DNA of 64,000 nt from Callorhinchus milii (lineage: Eukaryota), in assembly GCF_018977255.1 (NCBI RefSeq), contig NW_024704742.1, positions 36,892,001-36,956,000 of the forward strand, in the 5' to 3' direction. The position numbers and the translations under genes are program-made. The notes under the pieces were generated by a model. That model saw nothing but the letters and a program-made list of their open reading frames with translations, searched no databases and was not told the origin of the DNA. Positions within the stretch are counted from its first letter, which is position 1. The number at the start of each line of letters is the position of its first letter. Below, piece by piece: positions 17,037-59,199 of this stretch.

Positions 17037-17192
17037 AACTGTTTGTGGGACATTGCTATGTGCAATTGGCTGCCGCGTTTGCCCGCAAATATACAGTCAA
17101 TTCACTTTGCAGTGTGTTCTGTGAAGCGCTTTGGGACGTCCTCCCGATGTAAAAAAACGCTATATGAAATGCAAGGATTATTATTATTATTA
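17037..17192 (+). mobile_element. 5'-truncated tRNA-SINE (tail portion)
   Basis: Near-identical to the 3' half of 20338-20653; ends in (TTA)n abutting an L2 fragment. Confidence 0.85.
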
Positions 17193-18296
17193 TAGTTGGG
17201 TGTCATCCGCATACATGTGGAAGTTGACCCCATGTCTGCGGATGATGTCACCAAGGGGGAGCATGTAGATATTAAAGAGGAGAGGGCCAAGAACAGAGCC
17301 CTGTGGGACGTCAGATGTGACAGTGCAGGGGCTGGAGGAGAAACCGTTAGAGACAACGAAGTGGAGATGGTGAGAGAGATAGGATCGAACCAGACAAGGG
17401 CAGGTCCGCGAAGATTGAGTAAAGTGGAGAGGCGATGTATGAGGATGGAGTGGTCGACAGTGTCGAAGGCGACAGAGAGGTCGAGGAGGACAAGGAGGCA
17501 GAGGGAGCCCTGATCACAGATGTTCAGAATGTCATTAGTGACTTTGACCAGGACTGTTTCCGTGCTGTAGGCAGCACGGAAGCCGGATTGGAGAGGTTCA
17601 AAGAGGGAATGCCGAGAGAGAAAGGAGCGGATCTGGGAAGCAACGACTCGGTCCAGGAACTTGGAGAGGAATGGGAGGTTAGAGATTGGGTGGTAGCTAG
17701 AGAGGAGGGATGGAGCCAGGGAAGTGGCTGAACGTATCCCCTTGATTTTAGATTCGAGGAAGTCCAGTATCTCTTCACAGGTGGAGTTTGAGGAGAGGAT
17801 GGGCGAGATATGGGAAGGTGGACGGAGGAGGCAGCTTGTGGTGGAAAAGAGAAGCTGGCGGTTGTCCTTTGCCTCCAAGATAACCTTGGAGTAGAGGGAG
17901 GATTTGGCGGAAGCAAGAGCGCAGTGGTAGGTCTTGGTGAGTTGAAGCCAAATCTGCCAATAGACCGTTAGTTTGGATTTGGTCCAGTCGCGTTTGGCAG
18001 CTCGCACTTGTGCCTTGAGGGAACGGAGATGGCTGGTGTACCAGGGAGCTTTACGGGAGTATGAGGCAGTTCGGGAGGTGAGGGGGACAAAGGAGTCCAC
18101 AATGGAGGAGAGGGAGTTGTGGAGAAAGGAGAGTGAGGAGTGGAGATCCGTCAGTGAGGGCCAGAGGTGTAGGAGTTCAGATGACTCCAGGGCAGTGGAG
18201 AGGGAGTGGGAGGAATTTTTTTTCCATGGACGGTATGTAATGGTGGAGGATTGGGAAGGGGGGAGGGGTACTGAGGTACACTGGAGTACAGGTTAG
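17193..18296 (-). mobile_element. L2 LINE ORF2 fragment including the RT domain (frameshifted, internally deleted)
   Basis: APWYT..., [51 protein letters not shown]; a shifted frame gives [11 protein letters not shown] at 17194-17225. Confidence 0.92.
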
Positions 18297-33245: not shown

Positions 33246-34580
33246 GTTACATAAATGAAGTAAATCTAGACTCGGGTGGAATCTCTCTCTAATGTCAGCA
33301 CAATTAGATTGGAGTTTAATGTAAACTATACAATCTTGGATAGGAATTTGTATATTGTGAGATCCTGGTTCCATTTTAATTTGATGCAAGAAATGCAACA
33401 TTTTGAACTGGAGTTAATGAATACGATGACTCAAAGATATGAAAAAACATGAACTTGAAGATACTTTGGATGTGATATTAAACCCCGCTGCCTATTCAGG
33501 TGGATGTTAAACATCACGTGGCATTATTTGAAAATAAAAAAGGAATTTCTTCCAGTGTCCTGGCCAATAATCCCCTGGATAAAATTGGTCATTCACTTCT
33601 TGGATATTTGTGGGATATTGATGCGAACAAATTGCCTGTCATGTTTGCCTAGAAAATACAGTCACTATACGTCACATGAAAACTGCAAAGATTATAATAA
33701 TGGTACTGTGTGCATGTAAAAGTATTTCACTAACTTTTTCTTCCATCTCCTTACAATTAATAGCCAATATCAATCGTATTAATCACAATCAATAAACGTT
33801 ATTGATGGCTCTTCTTTACCCGCCTTCTAAATAAACAAAACGTTTGCCAGATACTTTTTCACCAGGGCAAGTGACCCATAAGTAGATTGTACACAACAGC
33901 ACCATGGAGTGGTGAGAGCTGGGCATGCATCCACAACTACTGGTGTGATTGTGAGATGCTCAGGAAAGACTGCTAGTAGTGTTTTTGTCCAGTTAAATTG
34001 AGCAAATTTTCCAGTTCATCTAGTTATTCCTGACCTGGATCCTAATTCATTCCTGCAACATTCACAAAGCATATTCTGCAGCAGCACGAAGCAATCGTGA
34101 AACTACCAATTTAGCAATATGATACAACAGACTACAGAATACTGCAGCATATGGTGCTTTTCACATTGGGAGGATGTCTTAAAGTGCAAATGGAAAATTA
34201 ATAAATAGAAAACAAATAAAACTAGGTCAATGGAAAAAAAGCAGTACAGAGCCACTTTAATTTCATAGAGGACACACTACATTCTGTAATTCACTGCTCA
34301 GTCCCAGATGATTTTATCTTGTACTCATATGCTAACTAGGGAAGATGTATCATTGTCCTTTCACGAGGTCACACTTGTTTATATAGTAGTTGGGCAGAAA
34401 TTGAAGATCAGGGGAATGATAAGATAAATCAGCAGATGGTACAAAAGTGTGGTGCATGTCCAATGCAGGAGGTCACAGAGGTCACAAAAGGTGACAGAAG
34501 GAAGAGCAGTAACAGCTGGAAGGATGGCACTGTTATCTGTCTTTGGCACAAGCGATTGGAGTTGAAATTAATCTTGTATC

Positions 34581-34801
34581 CAAAAAGACACAAAATACTG
34601 CAGATGCTGGAAATTTGAAAACAAAAACAGAAGTCGCTGGGAGCACTCAGCAGGACAGGCAGCATCTATGGGGAAAGGAAAGTGAGTCAACGTGAATGTT
34701 CTGACGAAGTGTCGTGGACCCGAAACATTGACTCACTTTCCTTTCTCCATAGATGCTGCCTGACCTGCTGAGTGTTCCCAGCGACTTTTGTTTTTGTTTT
34801 T
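34581..34801 (+). mobile_element. Penelope-like palindromic element with minimal hammerhead ribozyme core, 13-bp TSD
   Basis: ~75-bp inverted arms (34618-34692 / 34725-34800); CTGACGA(34701)-stem-GAAA(34722); flanking direct repeat ttaatcttgtatc at 34568-34580 and 34802-34814. Confidence 0.8.
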
Positions 34802-35007
34802 TTAATCTTGTATCTGTTGGGTTTAGGGGACAAAATTACAGGAGTTTATCTTCTGATTTTAAAAAGAACTAAAGAAGAGGCTGAATTGTAAATGTTAGGG
34901 TGAGTTTCATGATGTGTTCCTTGTGTCAACTATCTCACAACACTTTCTGAAATACCACAAATTCATTTCCATTCCTTAATTGTCTCCAAGGTTAACTGAC
35001 CTGTCAG

Positions 35008-35212
35008 GCAACAACAACAACAAATTACATTTGTAAAGTGCCTTTCACGTCGGGAGAACACCCCAAGGCGCTGGACAGTCAGGGATTTGGACCCGTGCTG
35101 GGTGTTGGGATCAGGAGGGGTGGGGGGCACGGAGAGTGGGAGGGTGGCCGAAGACATTGTCGAAGAGGAGGGTCTTGAGACGTGTCTTGAAGGGGGCAAG
35201 GGAGGAAGCAAG
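35008..35212 (-). mobile_element. L2 3' terminal fragment
   Basis: FKTRLKTLLF-type end, 3' stem-loop, (TTG)n. Confidence 0.85.
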
Positions 35213-35296
35213 TCGCTATGCCAAATGGAAGAATTATTATAAGTATATGTTTTTGTATGATATCATGTATGAAGTAGTTTGATAATATACCTTATA

Positions 35297-35405
35297 CAGG
35301 GTGACCAAAAAGTCTTATTTTTCAGTTACCCTATTATCTAAAAAAAATAATTTCTTTAAGACTTATTAAACATTATAATGGTATCACAATATTTTGGTCA
35401 CCTTG
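35297..35405 (+). mobile_element. 109-bp Tc1/mariner-type MITE (second copy)
   Basis: TA-cagggtgaccaaaaa...attttggtcaccttg-TA; internal taatttctttaagacttat shared with the 26015 copy. Confidence 0.82.
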
Positions 35406-35699
35406 TATTTCTGCATGTGCACAGAAGATACATTTCAAGGTAAGTTCCTTCAAAATATAACTAAATATAATAATAATTTGGTCACTCAATGTACGTATGT
35501 GGGACACTGTTGTGCTCAATTGGCTGTCTTGTTTTGCCCACAAAATATCTGGTCAATTCATTTCACAATATATTCTGTGAAGTGCTTTGAGACGTATCAC
35601 TGACATGATAAGATGCTATATCAAATGCAAGTATTATTATTATAAAGTATACTATCAAACTACTTCATACATGATATCATACATACACATATGATATCT

Positions 35700-35980
35700 G
35701 TAATATTCTTTGCATTTGGCATAGCGCTTTTCATGTCATGAGGATGTCTCAAATCACTTTACAGGATTTTACTGTGAAGTGGCGTGAATGATTGTTTGTA
35801 GGCAAATGCGGCAAGCACAATTTCTCACCCAAGTTCCAAAACAGCCATGAAACAAATGACCAATTTTATTTAGGGGGATCGTTGGACACAACACCAGGCG
35901 AAACTCCCTTATCTTTTTAAACCGTGCCATGGGGTCTTTAACATTCATCTGAGCAGGTAGACGGAATCTCAGTTTAACAT
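35700..35980 (-). mobile_element. Deu-domain SINE 3' portion
   Basis: Reverse complement includes gttaaagaccccatggcac and the shared tail. Confidence 0.75.
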
Positions 35981-36502
35981 GTACTGCAATTACGTTGCTG
36001 CTTCCACAAACAAACCCAAACTTTTTGATGTCAACAGCCAGGGATGTACAATGAGCAACCCCTGCCAGGCAGAGGTGCAACATGAGTGTATGTCATTATG
36101 CAGCAGGTGGCATGATGTTAACCCAACATAAGTGTTTTTCACTGATATTTATCCAGGGTAAATACAACTCTGTTACAGTTCAAGGGATACATCCCACTGT
36201 GATGGACTATAGCAAAGCTTTTGCATTAAATCCAGAATAATGTATATTTATGAGATGGACCAGGACTTCAACATAAGAGACTGAGAGCTCCCTCCTCTGG
36301 AAGCAGACTCAAACAACCAAATCAGATCTGGTAGGTTTGATTATTCACAAGTATTTATCATCAGTGTAAATTCCAAGTCAACCACATGACTCAGATACTA
36401 ACTTTGAAAAAATAGTGTTTGCCAAATTGGGTTTCCTTTATGTGGAGGTGTGGATGCTATCCTGCCAGGGAAATGTCTGAGCTACTGTGCAGGGAAGATT
36501 GC

Positions 36503-36935: not shown

Positions 36936-37892
36936 TCTGAGCAAAGATGGTGTTGATTGATTCACAAAGCCTGGTGCAGAAAGGGCACAGGCTGCAGAGA
37001 TTTGGATAGTCTGCTCAGGACATGAACAGAGATTGGGTCGGTGTGAGCTCAGAAAAGAGCTGAACTCTGCAAATGTTAATATTTTTGTGGCTGAGTTGAA
37101 CTGCTGCTGCCCTTTCCATTCGCTCTGTCAGGCTGTAATTCAAAGCTATCAAATGGCACAAGCCAGCTGCTTAACTCCTTAATTGTTGAAACAGATTCTT
37201 GCGGATCCTTTGGTGTTACTGCTTAAATGGGATCCAAGGTGCCATACCTGCAAACCGGATATCATGCATTAACAGGGACTTTGTGCCTACAATTGATCAA
37301 TTCCCCTCACACGTTGCAATTCTGAACTCCAGCAAAGACATTATTAACCTTTTATTGGGTCTTTTCTGATAATAATAATATTAATCCTTGCGTTTGATTA
37401 TAGTGCCTTATCACGTCTTCAAGTTGTCTCAAAGCGCTTCACAGAATACACTATAAAGTGAGTTGGCTGTATATTTTGTGGGTGAAACCCGGCAACCAAT
37501 TGCACACACAGTGTTAGACAAACTATCATGAATTGAGTGACCAAATTATTATTATTATTTTATTTTATTCACTGAGAAATAACTGGAAAACAAAACACTG
37601 TCCAAAATCACAACTTAGAGCTTGTGATAGCGCCCTGTGTTTTGCCTCCAAGTCTTTTCTCAACCGAATTCATGAAGTAAAAAGTTACCTACATAATAGC
37701 CTTTGCTGCCATTTGGAAATACATTTTGCAATGTTCTGAGCACTTTTGGTAGCAAGTTAGCCATTCTTCGGATGAGACATTAAACTGAAGCACCGTCTGC
37801 CTGTTCAGGTGAACAATAAAGATCCCCTGATACTACTCGGTAAGAGAATGGGAGGTTCTCTCGATGTTCTGGCCAACTATCCCCCAAATAAA

Positions 37893-38072
37893 CAAAACAC
37901 AAAATACTGCAGATGCTGGAATCTGAAACAAAAACAGAGAGAGCTGGGAAAACTCAACAGGTCAGGCAGCATCTATGGAGAAAGGAAAGTGAGTCAAAGT
38001 TTCGGGTCCACAACCCTTCATCAGAAGCAATTTTTTTTAAGGTATTATTACCCTCTGAAAAGCAATCTGCTA
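37893..38072 (-). mobile_element. Penelope-like hammerhead element fused to a SINE fragment, 14-bp TSD, inserted in a Deu-SINE
   Basis: Minus strand CTGATGA-A-GGGTT-GTG-GACCC-GAAA (38024-38000); the arm matches 34585-34692; direct repeat atcccccaaataaa at 37879-37892 and 38073-38086. Confidence 0.75.
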
Positions 38073-38289
38073 ATCCCCCAAATAAAATTGGTTATTCACT
38101 CATGGCATTTTGTGGGCATTGCTGTGTGCAAATTGGCTTCCACGTTCACCTACAAAATACACAGCCACTGCACTTTACAATAAAACCATATGAAGCGCGT
38201 TTCAACCCCCTCTCCCCAGTTAAACAAGTTATACAAAAGGCAAGGATTATTATAAGGATTATTACATTATTATAATAATAATGTGGTTA

Positions 38290-38604
38290 AGCTCAGTGGT
38301 TAGAGCACTCGCTTTGCAAGCGAGAGACCTGGTTCAATTCCAGGCAGAGGGCGAAACCTTGGGCAAGTTTCCTTACTCCACACAGAGCCTAATAATAATC
38401 CCTCCAAAACTAAAAACAATAATTAAATTGGTCATTTTCAATCTACGACTGTTTGTGGGACATTGCTGTGCGCAATTGGCTGCCGCGTCCGCCCACAATT
38501 ATACAGTCAATTCACTTTACAGTGTGTTCTGTGAAGCGCTTTGGGACGTCCTCCCGACGTGAAAAGCGCTATATCAAATGCAAGGATTATTATTATTATT
38601 ATTA
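38290..38604 (+). mobile_element. tRNA-SINE family A, young
   Basis: Near-identical to 50746-51060. Confidence 0.92.
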
Positions 38605-38605
38605 T

Positions 38606-38960
38606 ATAATCCTTGCATTTGATATAGCGCCTTATCACAGCTACGAGACGTCTCAAAGCGCTTCACAGAAAATACTTTGAATTGACTGTATTTATTTTGT
38701 GGGTGAAATGTGGCAGCCAATTGCGCACAGTAGTGCCCCACAAACAGTCATGGATTGAAGTGACCAATTTTTTTTAAAGGTATTAATACACCCGGAAAAG
38801 CAATCCGCTAATCAACTATAAACCGGGTTCCTACTTACTGCTAGGTAAACAGAGGCGTGTGGAGTAAGGAAAATGTCCCAACGCTTCGCCCTGCCAGGAA
38901 TCGAACCCAGGTCTTTCGCTTGCAATTCTAATGCTCTAACCGCTGAGCTGCAGAATTCCA
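38606..38960 (-). mobile_element. tRNA-SINE family B, full length, tail-to-tail with the previous SINE
   Basis: Reverse complement: gcagctcagcggttagagca...ggttcgattcctggcagggcg...ccacacgcctctgtttacctagcagtaagtaggaacccgg... followed by the shared tail. Confidence 0.88.
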
Positions 38961-52554: not shown

Positions 52555-52677
52555 GTGGAGATCGTGATCGGATGACTGCCAATCATGAGACATACCTCCT
52601 CATGGCCAGTACTCAGAATGATATGGAAGACTGGGTGAAGACTATTCGCAGAGTGATATGGGCTCCCTTTGGTGGAG
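52555..52677 (+). CDS. ARHGAP24: ARHGAP24 (FilGAP) internal exon, C-terminal part of the PH domain
   Basis: Acceptor tgtcttgtag|, donor |gtaaga, 123 nt, phase 1-1; encodes (G)[40 protein letters not shown], nearly identical to recalled human ARHGAP24. Confidence 0.95.
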
Positions 52678-53711: not shown

Positions 53712-54290
53712 AATACAATACAAAATTATATTTGTAAAGTGCCTTTCATGTCGGGAAGACGTCCCAAGGCACTGAACAGTCAGGGATTAGGACTCAAGCA
53801 GGTGAGTTGGGGGGGTGGGGGGTAGGCAGGGGTTGTGATCAGGGAGAGTGGAGGACAGAGAGGGTAGCGGAGTGGCCGAAGGCATGTTCGAAGAGGAGAG
53901 TCTTGATACGTGCTTTGAAGGAGGCAAGGGAGGAGCAAGACAAGGGGACTGCGGGATGGAGTTCCAAAAGGTGGGGGCAGAGAAGCTGAATGGTGGGGCC
54001 AGGCTGGGCCAGGCCGGGCGGGGGATATGGAGCAGTCTGGAGCTTGCTGAGCGGAGGGAGCGGATAGGTTGAGGTGAGGAGGCGCTGACAGGAGCCAATC
54101 AGGAGAGCCTCGGTCTTGTTGACGTTCAACTGAAGAAAGTTTGCTCTCATCCAGGACTTGATGTCTGACAGACATTCTGTCAGGACAGCAGTAGTCCTGG
54201 AGTCAAGGGTGGAGACAGAGAGGTAGAGTTGGGTGTCATCTGCATAAATATGGAAGTTGACCCTATAATCTGGGGATGAGGTCACCAAGA
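53712..54290 (-). mobile_element. Internally deleted L2 (RT YADD segment joined to the 3' end)
   Basis: VNFHIYADDTQLYLS...LQLNVNKTEALLIGS followed directly by RSLRSASSRLLHIP...FWNSIP. Confidence 0.88.
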
Positions 54291-54715
54291 GACTAGGCCT
54301 ATATTCTCTAGAATATAGAAGAATTGGAAGTGATCTTACAGAAACCTAAAAGATTCTTAAGGGTCTTGACAAGGTAGACAGTGTGAGATTGTTTCCCCTG
54401 GTTAGAGAATTGAAAACTAGAGATCATAGTCTCAGGATTAAAGGTCAGCCCTTTAAAACTGAGTTGAGAAAACATTTCTTCACTCAGAGGGTATTGAATT
54501 TATGGAATTCTCTACCCCAGAAGGATGTGGATGCTCAGTCATTGAACATATTCAAGACTGAGATCGATAGATTTTTAAAAACTAAAGGGATTAAGGGATA
54601 TGGGGATAGGGCGGGTAAATGGAACTTGGTTAGATCAGCCATGATCTTATTAAATGGCGAGGCAGGCTCGAGGGGCCGAATGGCCTACTCCTGCTCCTGT
54701 TTCTTATGTTCTTAT
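54291..54715 (+). mobile_element. CR1 LINE 3' end (ORF2 C-terminus + 3' UTR)
   Basis: RLFPLVRELKTRDHSLRIKGQPFKTELRKHFFTQRVLNLWNSLPQ...FKTEIDRFL; 3' UTR ...ggccgaatggcctactcctgctcct, tail ttcttatg repeats. Confidence 0.92.
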
Positions 54716-55605: not shown

Positions 55606-56235
55606 CAAGTACAGTACAGAAATTCATCTCTGTAGACAACACAGCTTTACAGTGGAGAAAATGCACCTCTATGGAGTAAACAGCCTCAGAGTGCAGAGAG
55701 TGACTACTGTAGCATTGGACAGCCTTATAATGTTGCAACGTTGATTTAATTAATTCACAATAATAATTTCATGTGGCCTTGGGGCATGATCTTTGCAGAA
55801 TGGCCCCTTTCCAGTTGCAGCAAACTTTATTAGCCTGTAAGCTGTGCTGAATGAATTCCTTCTGTAATTATGCCAGTAGTCATTGAATATTAATCTCTGA
55901 TGGATGTTAGATTTTTATGCCTATTTTGCAGTCCCTGGACTATAAATTAAGAGTAAGGCAGTTTGTTAGAAGTAGTAGGGTCTAAGACATAGTACTTTTT
56001 AATCACTCAGACCTGTCCAGTCCACAATTTGCATATTAGAATATTGGGAGGCATTTTGTTTGACACTTTCCACCCTGGACTGAATAACTATTAAAGATAG
56101 AATGTCTTCAGGGGAATCAAAATGGCTGCAAATTATAACTGACGAAGTGACGAAGGTAGGAAGAGTATAAAGAAATGACCACCTTGATTGGTGTGTAGAG
56201 ACATAAGCAGATGCTGATCAAGCTCTGTGCTTCCA

Positions 56236-58529: not shown

Positions 58530-58641
58530 ATGCCTGAGAATAAGAATATCATATTCTGCACTACCAGTGCTTTAACATACCCCACTTTCCTCCCTAAAAC
58601 CACCTACAGGAAAATTAAGCGATGCTTCAGCTTCAGAAAAG
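58530..58641 (+). CDS. ARHGAP24: ARHGAP24 alternative first coding exon (PH-less p73RhoGAP-type isoform)
   Basis: MPENKNIIFCTTSALTYPTFLPKTTYRKIKRCFSFRK + G|GTAAGT consensus donor, phase 1; matches the recalled human isoform N-terminus MPE...PFIPKTTYRRIKRCFSFRK-GIFGQ. Confidence 0.88.
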
Positions 58642-59199
58642 GTAAGTGTCTGCAGGATGATTGTTTGATTTCACAGTTTATATGAGATTTCAGTTTTGAT
58701 TTTCGTCTATTGCTTGTGTTGCTGATGTGTATGAAATAGTAAGTGTGTGTTTGTGGTGTGCGTGTGTGGGTTTGCACGCACCGGTTTAAGCTGCTGCTTC
58801 TGTAGTTGAATGGTTCGGTTAGGTAAAAGATGCTTTGTGGTCAGTTGAAATTGTGTTCTCTATGCACAATATGGATATTGCTATGAAAAGATAATTTGAA
58901 AAGTACAGCCATCAATTTATTTTTGTGTGTGAATTGCTAAGTAGCTGCCTGCTGATCAGAACATACATGTGCGCGCGTACCTGTGTCCGCACATAAACAT
59001 GGACACATGGGGTCCAGTAGGAAGCACTTTATAACAGGATGCAGTCACGGGAAAATCCTGCTGGTAATTGGCAGCCTGTCAGTCAAATCATGGGATCACC
59101 AATATCTGCTTTTGGTACTTTGGAGCAGAAATTCCTCAAGTCATCTGTGTGTTACCAGTTTTGGCAGGATTCCCTTATGGCTACTCTTGAGTTAATATT

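Follow-up and report, generated by a model that had tools for sequence, protein, structure and literature searches.

At about the middle of the 64-kb stretch of DNA analyzed here (the window), upstream of exons of ARHGAP24, lies a 221-bp hairpin that contains a hammerhead ribozyme motif, which raises the questions of what kind of element left it there, how its two arms were laid down and whether its ribozyme could act on the host transcript. We consider it highly likely that the insert is a dead-on-arrival 3' end (the pseudo-LTR, or pLTR, end) of an endonuclease-bearing (EN+) Penelope-like element (PLE), made up of head-to-head pieces that probably arose from two primings and carrying a hammerhead that is almost surely inactive.

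Structure of the Insert

The insert occupies 34581–34801 and is flanked by an exact 13-bp direct repeat on the + strand (34568–34580 and 34802–34814, the edge of the right copy being ambiguous by 1–2 T). The probability of a 13-mer repeat falling within ±5 nt of both insert ends by chance is ~5e-6. Two inverted arms, 34618–34693 and 34725–34800, are 93% complementary over 76 nt, with 5 mismatches, and the RNA fold of the hairpin has a predicted energy of -152.8 kcal/mol (z = -21.6; none of 200 shuffles was equally stable). A preliminary description of this DNA had proposed a 221-bp insert with a perfect 13-bp duplication and inverted arms of ~75 bp, and these measurements bear it out. The 37-nt tail described below, which is confined to the left side, and a second copy of the family at 37891–38026 are features absent from that description.

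The layout of the insert is asymmetric. From left to right it comprises a 37-nt 3' tail (34581–34617, minus strand), the 76-nt inverted arm (34618–34693, minus strand), 4 filler bases (34694–34697) that resemble neither arm, and a 104-nt sense arm (34698–34801, + strand). The left arm is an inverted, 5'-truncated copy of the element end and stops at the ACGU palindrome of the hammerhead, and the right arm begins at helix I and finishes in a T-run as a tail-less 3' end. Neither arm is a plain copy of the other, because each holds sequence absent from its partner: the 37-nt tail is present in the left arm only and the 27-nt 5' half of the motif in the right arm only. There is one complete hammerhead motif, the arms lie head-to-head and there is no head-to-tail repeat. 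Seven private or arm-specific changes were counted in 217 nt of the insert, as expected for neutral decay.

Target Site and Other Copies of the Family

Four runs of contigs were compared with the window at 80% likeness. Runs X1 and X4 represent organism A and X10 represents organism B, a related species; run X5, which may be DNA, covers no flank. A contig of 663 nt from organism B (X10 record 9) covers 34335–34580 (record positions 176–419) and resumes at 34811 (record position 420), with the left 13-bp repeat uninterrupted; the insert is therefore absent at the orthologous site in organism B. This empty site is 4 nt longer than a clean single copy of the duplication, and the resumption 4 nt early may be due to the edge of the alignment, to bases lost in A or to a short stretch duplicated in B. 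In organism A the left junction was present without difference in both of the runs that cover the flank (X1 and X4), and the right flank was almost uncovered. The proposal of a retro-insertion with target duplication is supported by the 13-bp repeat together with the empty site in organism B. The arms differ from one another at 5 of 76 nt and the flanks of A and B at 29 of 246 and 15 of 130 nt, which would date the insertion, very roughly, to halfway along lineage A after its split from B, if the arms began identical.

The element stretch was matched by 11,767, 12,968, 25,812 and 4,090 contigs in the four runs, nearly all of them on the element, and the left flank was at single-contig depth. 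The repeat family is very abundant in organisms A and B, with the proviso that depth is no copy number. Both tail-bearing and tail-less 3' ends occur among the loose ends of contigs in the four runs, and the loose ends at 34799 that continue into the tail sequence number 294, 322, 788 and 108, respectively; the tail of the left arm thereby extends the sequence of the right arm, and it also aligns with the end of the second copy in the window. Upstream of 34698/34699 the agreement among loose ends is only 0.37–0.41, and many copies of the family have unrelated sequence upstream of helix I. A subset of copies in all four runs has a coherent upstream extension of ~13–18 nt, which adds a fourth pair to helix I. 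This extension is pyrimidine-rich in a consensus of low agreement and ends in CAG at the 5' edge of helix I, resembling a 3' splice site; in the Penelope of Drosophila virilis an intron is reported to end where helix I begins on its 5' side (PMC4209133). Patterns specific to the family gave 0 matches in viral contigs and 0 in metagenome contigs.

Fold-back copies exist in both organisms, the junction between the arms being crossed in 5 of the 8 X1 records and 5 of the 7 X10 records listed, in a table that favors long records. Every listed record that crosses the center differs from this copy by gaps (1–15 gap positions). Depth in X1 is 256 at 34694 vs 236,031 at 34727 (~0.1%), and the joints are scattered among the 15 listed of 281. 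The center of the hairpin, where the filler bases lie in this copy, thus varies between copies.

The second copy was found by alignment at 37891–38026 (minus strand, 136 nt) and is a single arm that runs from the hammerhead to the end of the tail, with motif, body and tail in one piece. It is 87–89% identical to the insert (89% to the right arm over 101 nt) and it too has lesions in helices II and III. Both arms of the insert share subfamily bases that differ from this copy. The whole second insertion (37879–38086) lies inside a SINE-like repeat and consists of the second copy plus ~47 nt of another repeat family within 14-bp direct repeats (37879–37892 and 38073–38086); at its other loci in the window the SINE-like host repeat carries the 14-bp-repeat stretch once only. 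In its make-up this second insertion looks like a template-switch chimera.

A Minimal Hammerhead in the Sense Arm

The right arm opens with a minimal type I hammerhead motif (34698–34732, + strand), recognized by pattern, by the majority bases of the family and by the published consensus (PMC4209133, Fig. S3). On the + strand it consists of helix I (34698–34700 with 34730–34732, 3 pairs), the core sequence CUGACGA (34701–34707), an unpaired A (34708), helix II (34709–34713 with 34717–34721, 4 of 5 pairs in this copy) and GAAA (34722–34725), with a cleavage site predicted after 34729 from its position in the motif. All of the core elements (CUGANGA, the unpaired base, G10.1–C11.1, GAAA and UH) are present between 34701 and 34729. 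The string reported earlier from GUU-CUGACGA to GAC is present as written, and its attribution to the minimal hammerheads of Penelope-type elements is upheld by these core elements and by the match to the published consensus. As in the PLE hammerheads of the study that defined the minimal form (PMC4209133), the motif combines CUGANGA, one unpaired base, G10.1–C11.1 and GAAA with a short helix I, and also has no loop III and, in the family majority, the palindromic 15.2–16.2 pair. This copy is unlike the PLE consensus given there in its helix II mismatch and the C·A pair in helix III.

The bare CUGANGA..GAAA pattern is not above chance in the window (8 matches vs 5.76 expected); one of its matches, at 56139, was dropped as it is without helix II. 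The search with an RNA-motif descriptor that had been suggested in the preliminary description was run with a fuller version (3-bp helix I, helix II with at most 1 mismatch, G10.1–C11.1, UH), which matched only this site in the window and had 0 matches in 60 simulated 64-kb sequences, having been loosened until the copy at 34698–34732 passed with its two lesions; three stricter versions gave no match. The companion suggestion of an Rfam search did not yield a hammerhead among the 8 matches up to E 10 over 33500–36000. Those matches that fell to miRNA families were rejected as generic hairpin matches, all far below the gathering score.

The lesions that had been noted in stems II and III are real and lie at 34710 and 34727. 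At 34710 helix II has a mismatch, and at 34727 a C–G pair of helix III has been replaced by a C·A pair through a CpG-type change. Both are private to this copy, because the family majority has G at these positions: in the four runs G accounts for 96%, 95%, 94% and 99% of summed contig depth at 34710 and for 78%, 78%, 65% and 85% at 34727 in other copies. In the family majority helix II has 5 of 5 pairs, and the longer copies gain the fourth helix I pair seen in their loose ends. The palindromic 15.2–16.2 pair is absent in this copy and in the second copy, and is present in the left arm and in the family majority (65–85% of depth in the four runs). A consensus with a palindrome had been deduced from the opposite arm; it is the other copies, with G at 34727 and 34710, that bear this out, the left arm itself reaching only ACGU. 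None of the 40 variant rows listed (of 86) falls on a core position of the hammerhead, two copies having been compared directly.

Probable Assignment to Penelope-Like Elements

Several traits of EN+ PLE insertions are found together in the insert, including a 5'-truncated end with an adjacent inverted copy, a 37-nt tail at one end only and a 13-bp duplication, to which are added the empty orthologous site in X10 (with its 4 extra nt) and the 14-bp duplication around the second copy. In descriptions of such elements an inverted 5'-truncated copy lies at the 5' end and a tail of 30–40 bp is often present at one end only (Craig et al., 2021, PMC8557442), and elements of Adineta are described with an inverted pLTR, a 31-bp tail and target-site duplications of 8–10 bp (Arkhipova et al., 2013, PMC3846280). 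The insert resembles both accounts in its truncated end piece with an inverted copy, one-sided tail, short duplication and hammerhead in the pLTR. Unlike the Adineta examples described (8–10 bp), the duplication here is 13 bp, and unlike known EN+ PLE insertions both halves are only ~100 nt long with no ORF left, and searches gave no ORF-bearing parent.

The linked Penelope GIY-YIG or reverse transcriptase (RT) ORF that the preliminary description had called for was not found in the window or by peptide search. A tblastn search of the 64-kb window with the protein P0002 and 28 related proteins gave no PLE-type RT or GIY-YIG remnant, its 3 weak matches all lying outside the element, and a search for proteins containing the ATG reading frame of the element gave 18 candidates with none at E ≤ 0.1, which is a weak test. 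Because no RT or GIY-YIG ORF could be linked to the family, its membership of the PLEs is judged by architecture and motif, on which grounds the family very probably belongs to them.

The motif pattern also matched 3 metagenome loci, with 0 matches in viral contigs and 0 in prokaryote genomes, and a PLE ORF stands beside the motif in 1 of the 3. At this locus (L001) a GIY-YIG ORF (Pfam E 4.9e-5) is followed, 160 nt downstream, by a motif with the same core and the same helix II, and the ORF has 28 longer relatives, often with RT. Only the 26-nt motif is held in common with our element (81%, E 0.02–0.05) and nothing else, such that L001 supports an association of the motif with a GIY-YIG ORF and not membership of the family. 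Over L001:118–1148 the end of the GIY-YIG ORF and a cysteine-rich linker, Neptune-like going by the description in PMC8557442, precede a minimal hammerhead whose helix II stem is the same. The other two loci, L002 and L003, are near-duplicates that have no PLE ORF; at L002:782–988 the motif pattern sits in a decayed fold-back of 207 nt (65%, E 1e-4) laid out as in the insert, with no PLE ORF nearby. Among the 56 representative rows of Fig. S3 in PMC4209133 there is no chondrichthyan, and 15 of these 56 rows read C-G-U-U after GAAA, like the majority of the family.

Host Gene and Predicted Activity of This Copy

Exons of ARHGAP24 were located on the + strand at ~52555–52677, 58530–58643 and from ~60662 by Pfam and by tblastn with the UniRef C. 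milii ARHGAP24 protein, the domain scan having taken in 54 of the 311 unmasked + strand frames of at least 36 aa. The RhoGAP exon peptide is 100% identical to a UniRef entry labeled Callorhinchus milii, so that the window probably derives from a Callorhinchus genome. The first coding exon found downstream of the insert, at 52555–52677, encodes the end of the PH domain (Pfam PH E 7e-5), and earlier PH exons are not in the window upstream of it. Of the statement that the element lies in sense orientation within the ARHGAP24 pre-mRNA, the sense orientation is borne out by the exons, and an intronic position in the long ARHGAP24 isoform is a deduction, the upstream PH exons being outside the window; an isoform starting at 58530 would exclude the insert. 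In a short isoform of ARHGAP24 the exon at 58530–58643 serves as an alternative first coding exon, and it is 95–97% identical to two database proteins, one of them labeled Leucoraja erinacea.

Other repeats were seen in the window. An inverted pair at 35214–35296 and 35641–35726 (~84% over 86 nt; core of 52 nt, 92%) surrounds a SINE-like repeat and has no further copy in the window, and adjacent SINE-like copies at 38425–38770 are inverted relative to one another (79% over 358 columns). Broken RT fragments (Pfam RVT_1) are present on the minus strand at 17102–18292 and 53839–54345, and these we take to be probably of LINE type.

Fold predictions indicate that the left arm of the insert locks the cleavage strand of its own hammerhead. 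In the predicted fold of the whole insert helix I has a probability of 0.0 and 7 of the 8 bases at 34725–34732 pair with the left arm at 0.95–1.0; forcing the hammerhead fold carries a penalty of ~19 kcal/mol with or without the majority bases. In the isolated motif the probability of helix II is 0.98–1.0 with the majority bases and ~0.001 as it stands. On these predictions this hammerhead copy is almost surely inactive, and the earlier suggestion that it may be inactive is strengthened by the private lesions in helices II and III and by the predicted sequestering of the cleavage strand. Cleavage of the ARHGAP24 pre-mRNA by this copy is very unlikely, because of the fold predictions and the lost palindrome, and nothing points to a role of the insert in the host transcript.

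Proposed Construction of the Insert and Alternative Explanations

We propose the following course of events for the insert. A PLE RT/GIY-YIG protein would have nicked AT-rich DNA on both strands, the nicks lying ~13 nt apart. The cDNA primed at the top-strand nick would have begun at the tail start and given the left arm with its tail (113 nt), and that primed at the bottom-strand nick would have begun at the tail-less start and given the right arm (104 nt). Both cDNAs would have stopped inside the hammerhead region of an uncut RNA and been joined with the 4 filler bases. Any activity of the hammerhead would have belonged to the RNA of the source element, where it would have needed a dimer or the help of a protein; in the inserted copy one pair of helix II and the C–G pair of helix III would later have been lost. 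Each outer end of the insert is a known 3' end type, abuts one copy of the duplication and is oriented as for priming from that strand. Both arms and the second copy run past the predicted cut, and we therefore infer that the templates were uncut. The 5' ends seen in the window, three in all, lie inside the 35-nt motif; the RT may have stopped there, or the template may have been short and discrete.

The second of these possibilities leads to a different account of the template with the same PLE origin, in which the template was a discrete RNA of only ~135 nt, non-autonomous and running from hammerhead to tail, that was moved in trans in the manner of a SINE, rather than a randomly truncated full-length transcript. 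In favor of such an RNA, the two arms in the window that have the whole motif begin at the 5' limit of helix I (at 34698 and the equivalent of 34699), and loose ends upstream of this point agree poorly; the coherent upstream extension in a subset of copies from all four runs, however, indicates that longer templates exist, the pile-up at 34698 is partly forced in that the query ends there, and the pattern would equally follow if the RT stalled on the structured motif. We regard this account as possible but on balance unlikely. The same PLE origin would also be compatible with an inverted arm made by self-priming or fold-back of a single cDNA or antisense template instead of two primings, and self-priming on an antisense template is the explanation preferred in PMC3846280 from palindromes at the inverted junctions described in Adineta. 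Here the left arm does end exactly at the ACGU palindrome, and the arms share subfamily bases that set them apart from the second copy. Fold-back copying would nevertheless have to account for a tail in the left arm only and the 5' half of the motif in the right arm only. Both outer ends lie directly against a copy of the duplication, and an extra template switch would be required. We consider it rather improbable, and the arrangement at this one locus favors two separate primings at two nicks over fold-back copying.

The term "retrozyme-like" in the preliminary description is not supported in its published sense, since this locus has no units arranged head-to-tail, and a center that varies between copies means that amplification does not act on the hairpin as a whole. 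Transposition of the entire 221 nt by self-cleavage, as a non-coding hairpin retrozyme, would be in keeping with the fold-backs centered near the motif in both organisms, but their gaps, the ~0.1% depth at the center and the scattered joints, along with the one motif and a hairpin predicted to block the active fold, make it very improbable. A host-adopted intronic ribozyme or hairpin RNA acting on ARHGAP24 would be in keeping with the sense orientation relative to the exons, the very stable hairpin and a left junction unchanged in both organism A runs that cover the flank. Against this, the insert is absent in organism B, has two pairing lesions and 7 changes in 217 nt, and matches miRNA families far below the gathering score, and a host role of this kind strikes us as extremely improbable. 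Long inverted arms and a flanking duplication would also be shared with a MITE-like DNA transposon, and a hairpin could in principle form by chance; we give negligible weight to either, as on the left the inverted repeat stops short of the insert end, with the 37-nt tail outside it, the single-arm copy at 37891–38026 has its own duplication, the duplication lengths differ (13 and 14 bp), and the motif descriptor found nothing in 60 simulations.

Relationship to Known Elements and Implications

The preferred reading, that of a PLE end piece laid down by two primings, has a close counterpart in the Poseidon element PAc of Anolis carolinensis, for which cleavage and extension of both strands of AT-rich DNA are described, together with RT starts at two sites with the tail between them, copying of mainly unprocessed RNA, and a hammerhead whose cleavage depends on the presence of protein (Frangieh et al., 2024, PMC11167929). 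The insert is like PAc, as described there, in having its hammerhead ~100–130 nt upstream of two 3' ends separated by the tail, an AT-rich target and a copied RNA that was uncut. The PAc pLTR is described as overlapping the ORF start (PMC11167929), an overlap that our protein search did not yield, and the likeness is one of description. The formation of PLE head-to-head repeats and one-sided tails is called undefined in PMC8557442, and no two-primer account of such repeats appeared in the literature searched, part of which was represented by titles and listings.

Minimal hammerheads are reported to occur in thousands of mostly single copies per genome, with the monomer described as without activity and the dimer as of low activity (PMC4209133). 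The family resembles that account in its mostly single, dispersed motifs with some opposite-strand pairs. Retrozymes, by comparison, are described as head-to-tail tandems with a hammerhead in each unit (Cervera and De la Pena, 2020, PMC7229834; Li et al., 2026, bioRxiv 10.64898/2026.07.22.740005), and the latter source derives animal retrozymes from PLE ends. With animal non-LTR retrozymes, as they are described, the insert has in common that it is short, non-coding and PLE-related with a type I hammerhead, and they are reported in one chondrichthyan; unlike those tandems with circular RNA products, the insert consists of two arms set head-to-head with a single complete, minimal motif. In its workings it resembles a PLE end piece, and a relationship to the retrozyme families is possible.

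In itself the single locus matters little. The 221-bp hairpin is a real but ordinary dead insertion that carries a damaged copy of an already known motif and belongs to an abundant and described kind of repeat. What it offers is a clear illustration of the way a PLE insertion is put together, backed by an empty site in a relative. The asymmetry of the arms argues for two primings and links the in vitro result from the anole element, in which both strands are extended from two starts, to a genomic product; the fresh angle is limited to this two-primer reading of the asymmetric arms and a possible fixed 5' edge. We offer as a tentative and rather doubtful suggestion that the family is a discrete non-autonomous PLE unit of ~135 nt with its 5' edge at the hammerhead, an edge that may be set by a splice site or start site or by the RT stopping there, and that its fold-backs stem from two independent primings, one for each RT start. 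If this were true, thousands of copies with empty sites in a relative would provide a natural data set on how PLE head-to-head repeats and one-sided tails are made.
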